A stretch of DNA of 64,000 nt from Anaerolineales bacterium (GTDB lineage Bacteria > Chloroflexota > Anaerolineae > Anaerolineales > UBA11858), in NCBI GenBank assembly GCA_046483045.1, contig JAWODY010000074.1, positions 6,391 to 70,390 of the forward strand, given 5' to 3'. The position numbers and the translations under genes were made by a program. This document shows positions 6,700-37,051 of the stretch, one piece after another. The notes below the pieces were generated by a model that saw nothing but the letters and a program-made list of their open reading frames with translations, was not told where the DNA came from and made no database searches. Each line of letters opens with the position of its first letter. The stretch's first letter is position 1.

Positions 6700-7833
6700 A
6701 TGAAGAACATTCTGCTTTTTGATATGGACGGCGTCCTGCTCGAACCGCGCGGCTATCACAGGGCTCTGCAGGAAACAGTTCAAACCATTGGAGAGTCGCT
6801 GGGTTTCAAAAACCCACAACTCAGCCAGAAGGAAATTTACGCTTTTGAGGCCGCCGGGATCACCAGCGAATGGGATTCAGCCGCCATTATTCTGGGTCTG
6901 ATGATGAGGGAAATCTGGCAAACCCAACCAGAGATGAACCCGCCGGATACACTCCCCCCAACGCCAACAGGGAGCCGGACCCGACAACCACCTCAATGGC
7001 GCGCCTTCCTGACCAAGCTGGGGAAGCAGGAGGAAACCCAGAGGACCCCCCGCGAACGGGCCGCTGAATTCCTGAAAAAAGACCTTTCCAGCGACAAACA
7101 GGAAATGATTGAGAATCTGGTTGCAGGCGCGCATGAAGCCCGCCGCTCAATCACGCACCGCACCTTCCAAGAATTCGTGCTGGGAAGCGAGAGATTTCAA
7201 AAGGTATATCAGCTGCGGCCCCAATTCAACTGCCGCAGCTACTTGGAACAATATGACCGGCCCCTTCTCTCCTCCCATTCCAGCAAAAAGCTCTCAGATT
7301 GGCTCAACAATGAGGGCCAATCGAGTGCAATTCTCACCAATCGCCCTTCCCAACCTCTGGAGGACCACTTTGGCACCCCTGAGGCTGAAATGGGTGCGGC
7401 ATTGGTCGGTCTGGAAGACCTTCCGATCATCGGCCACGGTGAGATTGCCTGGCTGGCTGAAGAACGGGAGCAACCTTTGGGGCATGTCCGAAAACCCAGC
7501 CCAGTCCATACCCTAGCAGCTCTTCTTGTCAGCCTTGGAACCCCAAAGCTGCATGCTCTACAGGCCAGTGATGAATTTGTCCATGACAAACAAGCTGGTG
7601 AGATTTGGCAGAATCTTCACCAGAACACGGTTTACGTATTTGAAGACACACCGCCTGGATTCCAAAGTGCTCGATCCGCTCAAGAGATTCTGGACACAGC
7701 GGGATTTAACCTGGATCTGAGGCTGATTGGGATCGCTGTGGATGAGGAAAAAGGGGGCGTATTGAGAAATTGGGGCGGGAAGGTTTATCCAAACATTGAC
7801 CTCGCACTGCGGGAACAGATTTTAACATTATAA
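6700..7833 (+). CDS. HAD-superfamily hydrolase with an unusually large cap insertion, last gene of the his operon
   Basis: HAD motif I 'LLFDMDGVLLEP', motif II-like 'SAILTNRP' and motif IV-like 'VYVFEDTPPG'. About 200 aa lie between motifs I and II, including a Pro-rich 'NPPDTLPPTPTGSRTRQPPQW' segment. It starts 7 nt after hisE. Confidence 0.7.
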   Translation: MKNILLFDMDGVLLEPRGYHRALQETVQTIGESLGFKNPQLSQKEIYAFEAAGITSEWDSAAIILGLMMREIWQTQPEMNPPDTLPPTPTGSRTRQPPQWRAFLTKLGKQEETQRTPRERAAEFLKKDLSSDKQEMIENLVAGAHEARRSITHRTFQEFVLGSERFQKVYQLRPQFNCRSYLEQYDRPLLSSHSSKKLSDWLNNEGQSSAILTNRPSQPLEDHFGTPEAEMGAALVGLEDLPIIGHGEIAWLAEEREQPLGHVRKPSPVHTLAALLVSLGTPKLHALQASDEFVHDKQAGEIWQNLHQNTVYVFEDTPPGFQSARSAQEILDTAGFNLDLRLIGIAVDEEKGGVLRNWGGKVYPNIDLALREQILTL

Positions 7834-7938
7834 GGAGCTTTCCTTTCCCATTTTGAAGTTTGAACACTCCAATCTGGGAAACAAAACCGTACAAATCGCG
7901 TATACTATAAATAGAAATATGAGAACAAGGAGGATATC

Positions 7939-8316
7939 ATGAGTTTTCTAGGCAACATCATCTGGTTTATCTTCGGTGGTTTTCTGGCAGCTTTAGGGTA
8001 TTTAATCGGGGGAGCTATCTTGTGTCTGACGATCATCGGCATCCCTTTTGGCGTGCAGGCTATAAAGATCGGTATCGCTACCCTGACCCCTTTTGGGGAA
8101 GAAATCACACTGAAACCTAATGCCCACAACACGATGAACACCATTTTCAACTTGATCTGGCTGGTTCTCTTTGGCTGGGAGATCGCTATCGCCCACCTGG
8201 TCAATGGGCTCATCCTGTACATTACCATCCTCGGGATCCCTTTCGGCAAACAGCATTTCAAACTTATACCCTTGGCTTTGTTTCCCTTCGGCAGAGAATT
8301 CACCAAAATGAACTGA
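7939..8316 (+). CDS. yccF: YccF-family inner membrane protein (DUF307)
   Basis: 125 aa with two copies of the 'NIIWFIFGG...IGIPFG' type repeat characteristic of YccF. 'aaggagg' lies upstream. Confidence 0.8.
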   Translation: MSFLGNIIWFIFGGFLAALGYLIGGAILCLTIIGIPFGVQAIKIGIATLTPFGEEITLKPNAHNTMNTIFNLIWLVLFGWEIAIAHLVNGLILYITILGIPFGKQHFKLIPLALFPFGREFTKMN

Positions 8317-32634: not shown

Positions 32635-33183
32635 ATGTCTTCAAAAGAGAAAAATTTATTACAGCGAGCCCGAAAGCTTGACAGCAAAGCCCTGGGAATT
32701 ATCTACGACACTTACAGTGACAAATTGTACGCATACGCTGTCAGAAGGGTGGGAAACGCTCAACAAGCGGAGGACTTCGTCGCTGAAACGTTTTCAAGAT
32801 TTTTGCAGGCATTAAAAAGCGGTGGAGGACCAAAAGACCACTTACAGGCCTACCTTTATAGAATCACCCACAACCTGATAACAGATCATTACCGCAGGGA
32901 ACCTCCCCCTCCCCTGGAATTGGATGAAGACAGATACAGTGAGGACCTTGGTCAACCCGCAGACATCTTAACGCAACAAATAAAAGCTGAAAGGCTCCAG
33001 AAAGCCCTCCAGCATCTAACCCCCGGGCAGCAGCAGGTTATCATGCTTAAATACATAGAAGGATTCAGCAATCAGGAAATTGCGGAAACGATGGAAAAAT
33101 CACCAGGTGCTGTAAGGTCACAAGCCCACCGCGCTCTTGCTTCTCTTGAAAGGATTCTGGTCGATGAGGAAGATGAATCATGA
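32635..33183 (+). CDS. ECF-type RNA polymerase sigma-70 factor
   Basis: 182 aa. Region 2 reads 'ALGIIYDTYSDKLYAYAVRRVGNAQQAEDFVAETFSRFL...YLYRITHNLITDHYRR'. Region 4 HTH reads 'LTPGQQQVIMLKYIEGFSNQEIAETMEKSPGAVRSQAHRAL'. Confidence 0.9.
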   Translation: MSSKEKNLLQRARKLDSKALGIIYDTYSDKLYAYAVRRVGNAQQAEDFVAETFSRFLQALKSGGGPKDHLQAYLYRITHNLITDHYRREPPPPLELDEDRYSEDLGQPADILTQQIKAERLQKALQHLTPGQQQVIMLKYIEGFSNQEIAETMEKSPGAVRSQAHRALASLERILVDEEDES

Positions 33184-34163
33184 CCAATCACAATATACAA
33201 CCTGAATTAAATGAATATCTCAAAGCTCTCAAAGAAAAAGTGCCGCAGCGCGACCCAGAAATGGCAGCCAAGGGGCGGGCTAATTTTCTTTCGGAAGTGA
33301 AAGAACTCCAAGCGAAGAAATCAACCCCCTGGTTGGCTGAAATTTTTGCAGCGATCTTCTCTTTGCCGATTCAGGCCAACCGGCGTCTGGCAACCGCTGT
33401 CGCCAGCATTCTCACCGCGATCGTTCTTACTTTCGGGGCAGTGGGGGGAACGGTGTATGCCTCTCAGGACAGCCTGCCAAAACAAACACTTTACGCTGTA
33501 AAAACACTCACCGAAGATATCAGGCTCAGATTTTCAAAACAACCGGAAGAAAAAATTAGATTACTGGAAAAGTTTGCCAATCGAAGGGTAGAAGAACTAT
33601 CCGCGCTTTCAGAGAAAGAAGAAGAATTTCCCGAGGAGACGATTACTCGCCTGGAGCAGCATACAGAAACCATACTTAAGATAGCTTCTAAACAGGAAGG
33701 AAAAGAGTTGACCCAATCATTGAAAAAAATCCGGAAGTCTCTCCAAGCACAGGAAGAGATCATATCCAAACTGGCAAACATGGAGCATGGAAATGCTGAC
33801 AAGAAACTAACGCAGGTGCAGAAAAAACTACGGGAAAAAATCCATCTTGCTGAGGAAGGCCTGGACAATCCAGCTGCTTTTCGAAAGAAAATGAAGAGCA
33901 CAACACCTTTCACCCCGGTAGAGACCCTAAAACCCGGGAAACCAGAAGAAACTAGGACGCCTGAAAATAAGCGGAAACCGGTTGACCGCGGCACCCCAAT
34001 TTGGAAAGGAAAACCTGACCAGGTTGGCACGCCAGATCATAAAGGGAAACCGGGAGAGGCTGGACAACAGGAGAACAAGGGGAAACCAAACGAGCCAGGC
34101 TCACCAGATGACAAAGGGAAACCTGAAGATCCGGGTCCGCCGGATGATAAAAGAGGACCATGA
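33180..34163 (+). CDS. Single-pass membrane protein, DUF5667-like ectodomain, putative anti-sigma/sensor partner, with GKP-repeat tail
   Basis: ATGA overlap with the sigma gene. It has a cytoplasmic N-terminus of about 70 aa, TM 'LATAVASILTAIVLTFGAVGG', 'SQDSLPKQTLYAVKTLTEDIRLRF' and a helical region. The C-terminal tail carries four 12-aa repeats starting GKP. Confidence 0.65.
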   Translation: MTNHNIQPELNEYLKALKEKVPQRDPEMAAKGRANFLSEVKELQAKKSTPWLAEIFAAIFSLPIQANRRLATAVASILTAIVLTFGAVGGTVYASQDSLPKQTLYAVKTLTEDIRLRFSKQPEEKIRLLEKFANRRVEELSALSEKEEEFPEETITRLEQHTETILKIASKQEGKELTQSLKKIRKSLQAQEEIISKLANMEHGNADKKLTQVQKKLREKIHLAEEGLDNPAAFRKKMKSTTPFTPVETLKPGKPEETRTPENKRKPVDRGTPIWKGKPDQVGTPDHKGKPGEAGQQENKGKPNEPGSPDDKGKPEDPGPPDDKRGP

Positions 34164-34501
34164 GAAGAGAACGACCATAATTTTAAGCAAATTTACGAAA
34201 TTCATATTAGACATATAACCTCTCAGCCTACAAACTACCCCATCTATTCCATCCTCCTATAACCTCCTCAGAATCAGGAAGATTCTCCTGAGGGTGAATG
34301 GCAGCGTTACCTCAAAATGCTTCCTGGCTCCACGCCTATCCTTTGATAACCAAATATTCGCCTTCTCCTCAAAACCACCATCTCAACCTTAAAAAATTCA
34401 GATATTTAACAAACACCCGTAACAATCTGGTCTTTTTCGCGTCATATAGAGTGAAAGAAAGTCAGAAAAAAGGGAATTTAAGTCCAAAACCAGGAAAAAT
34501 A

Positions 34502-35446
34502 ATGGCTGAAGAAAGGAAATACCCGATATTAAATGAATATTTTGAGGCTCTAAAAGAAAAAGCTCCTCAGCGTGATGCAGAGCAAGCCGCTAAAGGGCGG
34601 ACCCATTTCCTGGCGGAAGCGAAGAGCCTGCAAAAACCCCAATCGACATCCTGGTTAGCGGACTTCCGAAAGACGCTTGCTTCCCTACAAATCAGGGGCA
34701 ATCGCCGTTTAGCCACCGCTGTCGCCAGCGTTTTGATTGCTCTAATCATCACCCTGGGGTCCGTTGGAGGAACTGTATACGCTTCCCAAGACAGCTTGCC
34801 AACTCAAACCCTTTACGCTGTAAAGACATTAACTGAGGATATACAACTGCGATTTGCAGATCAGGCCCAGGAGAAAATTGACCTCCTGGAAAAATTCACG
34901 AACCGCCGCGTTGATGAAGTGACCGCATTGGCCGAACGGGGCGAGGATATCCCCCAAGATACGATCTCTCGTTTTGAACAGCACACAGAGACCATGCTGC
35001 AGCTCTCCGCGGAATTAGAGGATGAAGATCAAGCCCAAACGCTTTCCCATATTCGCAACGCGCTGCAAGTTCATGAAGAAGTCATTCAAAAGCTCGCCGA
35101 GCGAGAATCGGGGAAAGCGGGAGAAGCGCTGCGTATGGTCCAGGGAAGGTTGCAGTCACAGATACAACGCATCGAAGAAGGAATGCTGGACCCAACCACT
35201 TTTCAAGAGAACAATCAAGATCAGAATCCCTTCAAGCCATTCGAAACCCCTCCGTCCGGAAAGCCTGAAAATATTGGACCGCCCGAAGAAAAAGGGAAGC
35301 CGGATGGGGTTGGCACACCGGACCACAAAGGCAAACCGGAGGACGCCGGCACACCAGAGAGCAAAAAGGGTCCAGAAAGTGACCCCCCTGATGGCAATGG
35401 ACCTCCCGATGAGGTTGATCCTCCAGCCGGCGGAGGAAAACCATAA
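34502..35446 (+). CDS. Paralog of 33180..34163 (DUF5667-like membrane protein with GKP-repeat tail)
   Basis: From ATG 34502 (MAEERKYPILNEYFEALKEKAPQRD...) it is collinear with the upstream paralog. Shared runs include 'NRRLATAVAS', 'GGTVYASQDSLP', 'QTLYAVKTLTEDI' and 'EQHTET'. Confidence 0.65.
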   Translation: MAEERKYPILNEYFEALKEKAPQRDAEQAAKGRTHFLAEAKSLQKPQSTSWLADFRKTLASLQIRGNRRLATAVASVLIALIITLGSVGGTVYASQDSLPTQTLYAVKTLTEDIQLRFADQAQEKIDLLEKFTNRRVDEVTALAERGEDIPQDTISRFEQHTETMLQLSAELEDEDQAQTLSHIRNALQVHEEVIQKLAERESGKAGEALRMVQGRLQSQIQRIEEGMLDPTTFQENNQDQNPFKPFETPPSGKPENIGPPEEKGKPDGVGTPDHKGKPEDAGTPESKKGPESDPPDGNGPPDEVDPPAGGGKP

Positions 35447-35533
35447 ATGAACGTCCAAGACCATACTGCCTATGATGAAGAACAACCTCAGTAATTATTT
35501 AGTCTTTCGATCACCGAAAGAAAGGAGAAAGAT

Positions 35534-36313
35534 ATGAAACACAATAGGCACATTCTCACCAGTTTTATGCTCATCTTAACCCTACTGCTCACAGGGTTCA
35601 CCAGCCGGGCCGTTCAAGCGGAAACCCCGGATGAGTACGAATTTTCGGGCATCGTGGAAACGGTAAGCGAAGATGGCTTCACCTTCCTGACTGAAGACGA
35701 CATTCTGATCTCCGTGAGTGCGATAGAAGAGGATGAAGGAAACTTCTTCTTCACGCTCACCGTGGGAGAGGAAGACCCCCTCACCATCTCTGTAGATGAA
35801 GATTTCGATTTTGGCGTCATCGAAGAGGGTGGCGAATTCGAACTCGAGGTCAAGTACAACAAAGAGACCGAGGAATGGACTGTATACAAACAAAAATTCC
35901 AGGAGCGGGAACGCGAAGAAGACGGGTACTTCTGCTCCGAGGACACTGAAGAGCAACATCCAGTAGCTTTAGCCATCGCCGAGAGCTATGACACGGATTA
36001 TGAATCCGTGATCGGAATGTTCTGCGAAGGACAGGGTGAAGAGGGCAGCGCCCGGACCGGATTCGGGCAGATCATGCTGGCCTACCAGACCGCGGGAGAG
36101 ACCGGGGGAACAGCTTCCGAGATCTTGAGTGAACGCGCGGAAGGCAAAGGTTGGGGGCAAATTTGGCAGGACCTGGATTTGATCGGGAAACCTGAAGACG
36201 CTGGAAAACCTGATCACGCCGGAAAACCTGACGATGTAGGGAAACCCGAAGGCGTAGGTAATGGAAAACCAGAAGGCGCCGGGCCCCCAGAAGAAGCGGG
36301 CCCGAAACACTAA
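35534..36313 (+). CDS. Exported acidic protein: beta-rich N-domain + shared about 60-aa domain + KP(D/E)xxG repeat tail
   Basis: Signal peptide 'MKHNRHILTSFMLILTLLLTGFTSRAVQA'. The central part is 'HPVALAIAESYDTDYESVIGMFCEG...GQIMLAYQTAG...GWGQIWQDLDLIG'. The tail is 'GKPEDAGKPDHAGKPDDVGKPEGVGNGKPEGAGPPEEAGPKH'. 'aaaggagaaag' lies upstream. Confidence 0.7.
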   Translation: MKHNRHILTSFMLILTLLLTGFTSRAVQAETPDEYEFSGIVETVSEDGFTFLTEDDILISVSAIEEDEGNFFFTLTVGEEDPLTISVDEDFDFGVIEEGGEFELEVKYNKETEEWTVYKQKFQEREREEDGYFCSEDTEEQHPVALAIAESYDTDYESVIGMFCEGQGEEGSARTGFGQIMLAYQTAGETGGTASEILSERAEGKGWGQIWQDLDLIGKPEDAGKPDHAGKPDDVGKPEGVGNGKPEGAGPPEEAGPKH

Positions 36314-36334
36314 TCAAGCATTGACGTAGATCTC

Positions 36335-36380
36335 TGTGAGAGGTGACGCTCTCTCGCCCATGGGGAGCGTTCCTCTCACA
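36335..36380 (+). promoter_or_regulatory. Long intergenic hairpin (possible attenuator or stabiliser) between two cluster genes
   Basis: The outer stem tgtgagagg/cctctcaca (9 bp) plus the inner acgctc/gagcgt (6 bp), with no U-tract. It starts 22 nt after the 35534..36313 stop. Confidence 0.4.
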
Positions 36381-36395
36381 ACACTTGAAACAACT

Positions 36396-36812
36396 ATGAA
36401 AAAGAAACTTTTCATTCTCGTTATCCTGATACTCATTGCGCTGACCGCTTGCGATAACTCACTCCAAAAAGCGACCCAGCAAGTCCTGGGCAAAGAGGAA
36501 CGCAACACACCGACTCCTCCTCCAACAGAGGAAGAAAATGAGGCAGAACAATCGGAAGAGGAAAAAAATACCTCTGCGTGCCCAGAAGAAGATCCACAAC
36601 CCATCGCTGTCAGTATATCCGAAAAATTTGACGTCTCTTATGAAAAAGTAATCGATTGGTATTGCGATGGTTACATTTTTGAAGATATCTTACTAGCTTT
36701 GCAAACGAGCAAAATGTCGGACGTGGAACCCGACACCTTGCTGAAAGAAATTGAGGCAAAAACCTGGGAAGAGATTTGGGATAACTTAGGGATCACGAAT
36801 CCTAAGGAATAA
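36396..36812 (+). CDS. Lipoprotein carrying the shared about 60-aa domain
   Basis: From ATG 36396: 'MKKKLFILVILILIALTAC' (lipobox), an acidic linker, then 'PIAVSISEKFDVSYEKVIDWYCDGYIFEDILLALQTSKMSDVEPDTLLKEIEAKTWEEIWDNLGI'. Confidence 0.7.
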   Translation: MKKKLFILVILILIALTACDNSLQKATQQVLGKEERNTPTPPPTEEENEAEQSEEEKNTSACPEEDPQPIAVSISEKFDVSYEKVIDWYCDGYIFEDILLALQTSKMSDVEPDTLLKEIEAKTWEEIWDNLGITNPKE

Positions 36813-36847
36813 TTAAACGAATCATAGATTAAAGGTAAAGGTGAAAT

Positions 36848-37051
36848 ATGAATGAGAAAGATACCCAAAAATACGAAGTGTCCCAACAAGAACTCATGGA
36901 ATGGTACAGCGGGGGAAGATCATTCCAAGACATCATGAAAGCCCTTCAAACCAGCCAGCTATCCAATATCCCGCCAAAAGAATTATTGACCCGCAGCATA
37001 AACCAGAGCTGGGAAGAGATTTGGAAAGAAATCGGGGTATTGCCCGCCTAG
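36848..37051 (+). CDS. Stand-alone copy of the shared about 60-aa domain (67 aa, no signal peptide)
   Basis: 'KYEVSQQELMEWYSGGRSFQDIMKALQTSQLSNIPPKELLTRSINQSWEEIWKEIGV'. 'aaaggtgaaat' lies upstream of the ATG. Confidence 0.6.
   Translation: MNEKDTQKYEVSQQELMEWYSGGRSFQDIMKALQTSQLSNIPPKELLTRSINQSWEEIWKEIGVLPA

Follow-up and report, generated by a model that had tools for sequence, protein, structure and literature searches.

What does it mean that three different proteins encoded side by side in one sigma-factor gene cluster end in much the same charged, proline-rich repeat? The question is raised by a 64,000-nucleotide stretch of an Anaerolineales genome (phylum Chloroflexota; contig JAWODY010000074.1, positions 6,391 to 70,390), hereafter the window, in which the gene for an extracytoplasmic function (ECF) sigma factor is followed on the + strand by genes for two paralogous DUF5667 membrane proteins, D67a (33180..34163, 327 residues; PF18915, 54.0 bits against a cut-off of 27) and D67b (34502..35446, 314 residues from the ATG at 34502; PF18915, 47.4 bits, same cut-off), and for a secreted protein, exp (35534..36313, 259 residues), made up of a Sec signal peptide, a beta domain, a helical domain and the tail. 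The initial annotation of this locus read the shared tail as an extended Pro-rich spacer, or as a common envelope-anchoring or partner-binding tag, possibly acquired by recombination between the cluster genes. Our analysis supports a repeat that is real, periodic, conserved and spacer-like, and speaks against a tag, a recent recombination and a shared origin of all three tails; it is likely, in our judgment, that the tails are generic extracytoplasmic intrinsically disordered regions (IDRs) or spacers.

The repeat peptides quoted for D67a, D67b and exp were all recovered where they had been placed. The three tails follow a general grammar, the hexad G-[K/T/P]-P-[D/E]-x-x. In D67a the tail (33936..34160, + strand) consists of 12 consecutive hexads of the form [G/R]-x-[P/Q]-x-x-x followed by RGP, the last 8 of which form four GKPxxxGxPxxK 12-mers, regular from position 34008. 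The D67b tail (35258..35443, + strand) opens with three GKPxxxGxPxxK 12-mers, drifts to degenerate xPPDxx hexads in its last third and ends in GKP, and that of exp (36185..36310, + strand) comprises four GKPxxx hexads (GKPEDA GKPDHA GKPDDV GKPEGV), one 2-residue slip (GN), and then GKPEGA GPPEEA GPKH. A Pro-Pro spacing of 6 occurred 10, 11 and 5 times in the tails of D67a, D67b and exp, respectively; when the residues of each tail were shuffled 20000 times with composition preserved, the observed count was reached in 0/20000, 0/20000 and 10/20000 trials. When all six-frame open reading frames (ORFs) of the 2.73-Mb assembly (94 contigs, 91% complete) were scanned for hexad runs (at least three G.P[DE].. 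or at least four G.P... units), such runs were found in D67a, D67b and exp only, apart from an artefact in an antisense frame of D67b. At the DNA level, Tandem Repeats Finder detected the exp array alone, with an 18-bp period and 76-83% matches, and the Gly and Pro codons of the D67 tails vary synonymously from unit to unit. Because synonymous codons differ between units, the repeat in the D67 tails is maintained at the protein level and does not stem from recent slippage. Charged residues make up 35-41% of the tails, Pro 19-24% and Gly 16-24%; the net charge is +1 to -6, and hydrophobic and aromatic residues are nearly absent. Neither a hydrophobic segment nor an LPXTG-like motif was present at the tail ends (...DDKRGP, ...GGGKP and ...AGPKH), and since the proteins end with the tails in this way, a reading of the tails as anchors or sorting signals was ruled out.

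All three tails are C-terminal and probably lie outside the cytoplasm, as the initial annotation had proposed from topology. Hydropathy analysis gave a single strongly hydrophobic segment in each of D67a and D67b, starting near residue 70. The predicted transmembrane helix of D67a spans approximately residues 68-92 (nucleotides 33381-33455), with the hydropathy peak at residue 70, after a short N-terminal cytoplasmic part, and that of D67b approximately residues 67-92; exp begins with a Sec-type signal peptide at residues 1-29 (MKHNRH, a hydrophobic stretch and AVQA, before E). AlphaFold2 models of D67a and exp were built with family alignments. For D67a, the model contains a transmembrane helix at residues 68-86 and a DUF5667 helical bundle at residues 105-240 with a predicted local distance difference test score (pLDDT) above 90, followed by a tail without secondary structure at residues 245-327 (pLDDT 34-45). 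For exp (mean pLDDT of 82), the signal helix is followed by a beta domain at residues 34-123 and a five-helix "WGQIW" domain at residues 143-213, both above 90, and then by a tail without secondary structure at residues 218-259 (pLDDT 54-59). These models, in which the tails are predicted coil with pLDDT values of 34-59, bear out the proposed Pro-rich spacer, and the tails are probably intrinsically disordered.

An ordered arrangement would be the opposite outcome: the tails might assemble into a polyproline-II or collagen-like superstructure, or bind metal or wall polymers through their Lys, Asp, Glu and His residues. The strict Gly/Pro periodicity, a His-bearing PDHAGP unit that recurs in exp homologs and a weak Pfam Collagen match (E = 0.072, below the cut-off) speak for it, but Gly recurs at every sixth residue and not at every third, so the collagen rule fails and a collagen-like repeat was ruled out; moreover, the AlphaFold2 tails are unstructured and of low confidence, and most units of the D67 tails have no His. 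We regard ordered assembly or ion binding as highly improbable.

Extracytoplasmic disorder on an anti-sigma factor has a precedent in Bacillus subtilis, in which sigma-I cannot be activated upon impaired wall synthesis unless the anti-sigma factor RsgI has its extracytoplasmic IDR, a similar C-terminal IDR is important for the function of PBP1, and disparate as well as scrambled IDRs can replace the native ones (Brunet et al. 2022, PMC9732909). According to the authors' proposal, these IDRs probe the peptidoglycan meshwork by entering its gaps. Like RsgI and PBP1, the cluster proteins carry charged or polar, hydrophobic-poor C-terminal tails that are predicted to be extracytoplasmic, in D67a and D67b on a single-pass candidate anti-sigma protein, and a second envelope protein of the same circuit, here exp, has a similar tail. 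In these tails, too, predicted disorder goes together with a charged and polar bias and a depletion of hydrophobic and aromatic residues, and the sequence is poorly conserved while its composition is kept. There are also differences. Pfam scanning of D67a and D67b yielded DUF5667 only, with no RsgI_N or RsgI_M domain, and by this measure they are neither RsgI homologs nor class A penicillin-binding proteins; the sigma factor is of the ECF type (BldN-like), where B. subtilis has SigI; the B. subtilis IDRs are irregular, and the tails of the cluster repeat strictly in hexads; exp is not a peptidoglycan synthase; and the host belongs to another phylum, Chloroflexota.

By this likeness, each tail would be a proline-punctuated, Gly-hinged polyampholyte hexad repeat, devoid of a hydrophobic core or an anchor, that would start from the folded domain next to the membrane and reach into the cell wall, or cross it, in the manner of the C-terminal IDRs of RsgI and PBP1. 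The tails of D67a and D67b would act as flexible probes or spacers through which the DUF5667 ectodomain responds to the condition of the wall and so brings about release of the ECF sigma factor, and the tail of exp would place or retain exp in the same wall compartment. Whereas the generic IDR or spacer is the reading we favor, we offer this specific wall-probing role in signaling only tentatively, by analogy with RsgI. D67a and D67b are candidate anti-sigma factors by the adjacency and overlap of the sigma gene, the stop codon of which overlaps the start codon of D67a in an ATGA at 33180-33183, and by conserved synteny. The order sigma factor, DUF5667 protein (1-2 copies), exp and lipoprotein recurs in related loci wherever the contig is long enough, as well as in two other Anaerolineales lineages; in most of the related loci that were examined, and also in loci L168, L169 and L171, the DUF5667 gene is preceded by a sigma gene. 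As for the domains themselves, neither Pfam nor NCBIfam scans matched an anti-sigma domain in D67a or D67b.

Sequences from other organisms bear on the choice between a generic segment and a private tag. When the 75-residue tail of D67a was compared by phmmer with a set of 1.84 billion representative proteins, 19 matches were obtained at E ≤ 1e-3. A Pfam scan of these tail matches identified an RsgI-type anti-sigma factor with RsgI_N and RsgI_M domains (P0052) and a FecR-domain membrane protein (P0048), each with hexads; also matched were an ORF in which ECF region 4 is followed by a membrane segment and GKPT hexads (P0057), a CarboxypepD_reg lipoprotein (P0047) and two exp-like proteins (P0049 and P0054). 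A DNA-pattern census with one genome per prokaryotic species, using the pattern GKP[DE]xxGxP[DE]xx twice, gave at least 119 stretches. Among the matches listed, to which all census figures here and below refer, the hexads were distributed over Actinomycetota, Bacillota, Chloroflexota, Acidobacteriota, Myxococcota, Gemmatimonadota, Thermotogota, Planctomycetota, Verrucomicrobiota, Cyanobacteria and Proteobacteria, with one haloarchaeon. The Pfam tally of 57 carrier ORFs contained ChpA-C four times, DUF5667 three times, Peptidase_S8 and CBM_4_9 twice each, and pullulanase, SBP_bac_5, MucBP, SpaA and RsgI_M once each. Most carriers possess an N-terminal signal or transmembrane segment, and the repeat is often located within approximately 30-80 residues of the C-terminus or just before a C-terminal hydrophobic anchor. 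The possibility that the tails are generic low-complexity sequence on unrelated proteins, named at the outset as fatal to the initial interpretation, was realized across bacteria and not within this genome, where three genes alone have them. Judged by these sequence comparisons, the hexad repeat is a low-complexity module that has been put to use widely among secreted and surface proteins and is not private to the sigma cluster. A cluster-specific envelope-anchoring or partner-binding tag is disfavored because proteins of many phyla that are secreted but otherwise unrelated bear these hexads. The occurrence of the tail throughout the exp family, and the DUF5667 proteins in which the helical domain of exp and the tail are fused (both described below), also speak against such a tag.

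Some of these carriers are themselves neighbors of sigma factors. RsgI-family proteins with GKP(D/E)xx hexads were found three times (P0052, P0153 and L071). Six census carriers are encoded directly downstream of an ECF sigma gene, namely, two of the window's genus, one Anaerolineaceae DUF5667 protein, two from Nocardioides and one from Dehalococcoidia, with one further RsgI-type protein counted separately; the Nocardioides and Dehalococcoidia membrane carriers had no Pfam match. That about 5 of 54 unrelated carriers are sigma-adjacent is suggestive and, with no background rate, is not claimed as enrichment.

Among the orthologs, period and motif are kept, as the initial annotation required of a meaningful repeat, and the number of units turns over. 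A search with D67a retrieved 43 homologs, the closest 29 of which all have GKP(E/D)x(V/A/P)G(T/P)P(E/D)xK 12-mers in 3-6 units. The suggested comparison of repeat copy number revealed the gain or loss of one whole unit, with proteins more than 80% identical to each other differing by a complete 12-mer (327 versus 338-339 residues). More remote DUF5667 proteins bear other low-complexity tails, for example, GSGN-rich runs or GPGDGTCDxCTPQ repeats. Between the genome under study (G000) and its nearest relative (G027), DNA identity was 64% in the tail and 90% in the body for exp, 79% and 95% for D67b, and 96% and 90% for D67a, i.e., the tail diverges more than the body in two of the three comparisons (exp and D67b, not D67a). 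Only in the nearest clade (G000, G027, G035, G009 and G023) do exp and the DUF5667 proteins alike carry regular GKP hexads. In genome G018 and locus L171, exp has GKP hexads beside irregular PG- or PENPG-rich tails on the DUF5667 protein, and in more distant species the DUF5667 tails are of PGN, PGQ or GNG type and those of exp of GKPDxGxPPGQxKK type.

These patterns bear on the partner-binding reading, according to which the hexads would mediate a direct, sequence-specific contact, either of D67a, D67b and exp with one another or of all three with a single receptor, exp being a ligand or co-sensor of the anti-sigma factors. In its favor are the confinement of hexads in this genome to three co-located gene products, the tight conservation of motif positions 1, 3 and 4, the fusion in other lineages of DUF5667 to the helical domain and tail of exp, and the clade-level match in tail flavor between DUF5667 proteins and exp, with a Spearman coefficient of 0.85 for GKP counts in 19 loci. 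That correlation, however, reflects about one clade of five related genomes, approximately a single evolutionary event and not independent evidence, and for this reason we do not count it as functional coupling. Elsewhere, exp retains hexads next to a hexad-free DUF5667 neighbor, identical hexads are found on chaplins, proteases and glycosidases that have no DUF5667 partner, and both the number and the sequence of the units change rapidly. Altogether, we consider a partner-binding tag unlikely.

The generic IDR or spacer likewise has to accommodate observations that weigh against it. The DUF5667 proteins of other Anaerolineales lineages end in short PG-rich or GN/GS-rich segments with no hexads, and because they end otherwise, DUF5667 function does not require the hexad. 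The lipoprotein and the 67-residue protein encoded in the same cluster have no hexad tail. Lastly, the strictness of G1, P3 and the acidic residue at position 4, together with the PDHAGP unit, is by sequence more order than a composition-driven IDR would need.

The exp family bears on the history of the repeat. A search with exp yielded 99 proteins, chiefly exp-like ones from Chloroflexota, in which the junction ...GWGQIWQxLxLIG(K/R)P(E/D)xAGPP... is near-invariant and is followed in most exp homologs by hexads of the form G-[P 46%/K 29%/R 20%]-P-[E/D 90%]-x-[A/V 71%]; G1, P3 and the acidic position 4 are strictly kept, and a PDHAGP(K) unit recurs. Because hexads are found across the family right after the WGQIW domain, the hexad tail is probably ancestral in exp, its K-rich flavor being a local variant. 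The low-complexity C-terminus of DUF5667 proteins, by contrast, seems from the sequences to have gained the K-rich hexad flavor only in the clade of this genome. The idea of a shared origin of all three tails gave way to this distribution, an exp tail that looks ancestral family-wide and regular GKP hexads on DUF5667 proteins in the nearest clade alone. Seven of the matches in the exp search are DUF5667 proteins of 368-441 residues (P0086, P0117, P0118, P0125 and P0128-P0130; P0118, for example, is from Candidatus Promineifilaceae), in which the exp helical domain and a hexad-type tail are fused behind DUF5667. On this sequence evidence, the DUF5667-WGQIW fusions provide a Rosetta-stone link between the DUF5667 and exp families.

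Recombination or gene conversion among the three adjacent genes would make the sharing a matter of repeat homogenization and not of common function. The genes are adjacent, lie on the same strand and have similar repeats; the peptide GTPDHKGKP is common to D67a and D67b, and GKPEDPGPPDDK is common to D67a and the G027 ortholog of D67b. Yet the longest exact DNA string common to the tails of different genes in one genome is 8-18 nucleotides, compared with 40-53 nucleotides between orthologous tails, by which recent gene conversion between the tails, and with it the initially proposed recombination as a recent event, was ruled out. Synonymous codon differences from unit to unit also run counter to homogenization, as does the wide distribution of exp-type tails in Chloroflexota, which makes them older than this clade. 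An old transfer in the ancestor of the clade is compatible with the data, and even so we rate recombination as the source of the sharing as quite unlikely.

The tail ends show a regularity of their own. The C-terminal residue is Pro in 25 of 29 DUF5667 homologs (P0001-P0029) and 40 of 92 exp homologs (P0062-P0152), counts that are phylogenetically non-independent, versus 7.8% of the genome's long ORFs, and the C-termini of the homologs stand in a fixed phase of the repeat (...GKP or ...GRP). Given this excess over the background, the frequent C-terminal Pro may protect a floppy end from carboxypeptidases. Alternatively, the tail could be a proteolytic fuse, a substrate of an extracytoplasmic (site-1 or C-terminal processing) protease, the trimming of which would start proteolysis of the anti-sigma factor, with exp as a competing substrate. 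Several sigma-adjacent families of membrane proteins, unrelated to each other, have the tail as their very C-terminus, which would fit such a fuse, and the phase in which the proteins end (...GKP, ...RP) is conserved, suggesting a role for the end as such; but the sigma cluster contains no protease gene, and a C-terminal Pro with further Pro at every sixth residue generally hinders exopeptidases, favoring protection over degradation. The proteolytic fuse is, in our view, very unlikely.

Returning to the generic IDR or spacer, we compared the tails with other charged, Pro-rich segments. Region Xr of Staphylococcus aureus protein A, made up of octapeptide repeats of the KPGKEDGN type, is thought to span the wall and is followed by an LPXTG sorting signal. 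Like the cluster tails, it is a short tandem repeat of Lys, Pro, Gly and acidic residues that varies in copy number and sits at the C-terminal end of an exported protein; its period, however, is 8 rather than 6, and the cluster tails end their proteins without the anchor that LPXTG provides in protein A. The spacer of TonB, a periplasm-spanning segment of Glu-Pro and Lys-Pro dipeptides that serves energy transduction in diderms, resembles the tails as a charged, Pro-rich extended segment across an envelope compartment, and differs in its dipeptide period and in being internal, between a transmembrane helix and a C-terminal domain, instead of terminal.

Hexads of the same kind, G-K-P-(D/E)-x-(P/x), such as PGKPEQ and PGKPDK runs, make up linkers of long chaplins (ChpA-C) and of Bacillota surface enzymes recovered in the census. 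Unlike the cluster tails, these are often placed between a folded domain and an anchor at the C-terminus, of the membrane or sortase type, and the variants are richer in Pro (one every 3 residues) and stand in no sigma or DUF5667 context. In the long chaplins of Streptomyces (L069, L075, L106 and L124), the chaplin domain is joined to the C-terminal anchor by a linker of PGKP(E/D)x hexads. Chaplin genes in Streptomyces are under the control of BldN. The sigma factor of the window scores best against a BldN-family model, its nearest NCBIfam model (TIGR02952), with a score under the cut-off, and the chaplins of Streptomyces share the hexads.

Extracellular IDRs on anti-sigma factors and wall enzymes are already known, and charged, Pro-rich repeats that span the wall are a classical theme. 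The new elements are the documentation of predicted hexad IDRs, in Chloroflexota, on the DUF5667 family and its secreted neighbor, the strict hexad grammar, and the link provided by the DUF5667-WGQIW-tail fusions. If the analogy with RsgI is true, IDR-based wall sensing, so far shown only for RsgI and PBP1 of Bacillus, would reach an anti-sigma family that is unrelated to RsgI and belongs to Chloroflexota, in which little is known of envelope and signaling. A bolder extension, which we think doubtful, is that the hexad IDR is a cross-phylum wall-probing module repeatedly recruited to the extracellular C-termini of anti-sigma factors that are not homologous to each other (the DUF5667, RsgI and FecR types and unassigned ones from Actinomycetota and Dehalococcoidia) and present on co-occurring secreted proteins as well; RsgI-style sensing would then be a general input to ECF sigma factors, and the trio of DUF5667, WGQIW and hexads a dedicated envelope surveillance system of Chloroflexota. 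The hexad signature (G1, P3 and acidic position 4) also offers a simple search handle for extracellular IDRs, and the DUF5667-WGQIW fusions provide a first functional link for two domains of unknown function; a literature search for DUF5667 found no papers. Should the analogy fail, the tails would be ordinary low-complexity linkers and an unremarkable annotation detail.

The sigma cluster as a whole (32635-37051) consists of six + strand genes, encoding in order the sigma factor, D67a, D67b, exp, a lipoprotein and a protein of 67 codons. The ECF sigma gene (32635..33183, + strand) matches the Pfam models Sigma70_r2, Sigma70_r4_2 and Sigma70_ECF. The bodies of D67a and D67b are 63% identical at the DNA level. 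The mechanically called ORF of D67b reaches an upstream ATG at 34298, but all ortholog alignments start at the Met encoded at 34502, and the 338-bp stretch 34164-34501 is for this reason taken as intergenic. The lipoprotein gene (36396..36812, + strand) encodes a helical "WxxIW" domain with no hexad tail and served as an in-cluster negative control; it is followed by the gene for a 67-residue stand-alone copy of the helical domain (36848..37051, + strand), which has neither a signal peptide nor a tail. This helical domain of approximately 70 residues (HPVA...WFC.G..GFGQIMLALQT...GWGQIWQ.LGL; window 35950-37051) is present in exp, the lipoprotein and the 67-residue protein, and no Pfam model corresponds to it.

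Although DUF5666 is annotated on many exp homologs, exp itself falls under the Pfam threshold for it and gave no other Pfam match above cut-off. The beta domain of exp (window 35633-35902) appears OB-like (oligonucleotide/oligosaccharide binding), with weak OB-fold matches only when the model was compared with the PDB by Foldseek (E ≥ 2e-3; RPA, IF1, CusF and PriB); the same comparison gave no match for the helical domain or the tail, and PDB sequence searches with D67a and exp returned chance-level matches only (E of about 0.2 or higher). The exp residues Cys134, His142-Pro143 and Cys164 show no variation among 52 homologs.

Several further observations concern relatives of the tail-bearing proteins. 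In distant exp orthologs of the same genus that have no GKP hexads (L041-L048), the tail ends in a conserved aromatic and basic segment, ..DWLPxxWFQKGKK; to judge from its sequence, this segment, which the GKP clade has lost, could be an amphipathic end that binds the membrane or the wall. Immediately ahead of its hexad tail, the exp ortholog of G018 (L033:7176-7965) breaks into two overlapping frames, 7176-7829 and 7630-7965, through either a frameshift or an assembly error, and the same locus has four tandem genes with the helical domain. A third DUF5667 protein of the genome under study, encoded outside the window (contig C15:70-1521, - strand), has no hexad tail; in its place, straight after DUF5667, are two near-identical DUF5666-like repeats (YGILESMTEDSLVVDGMTYLITPE...), and the end of this ORF looks like read-through into unrelated sequence.

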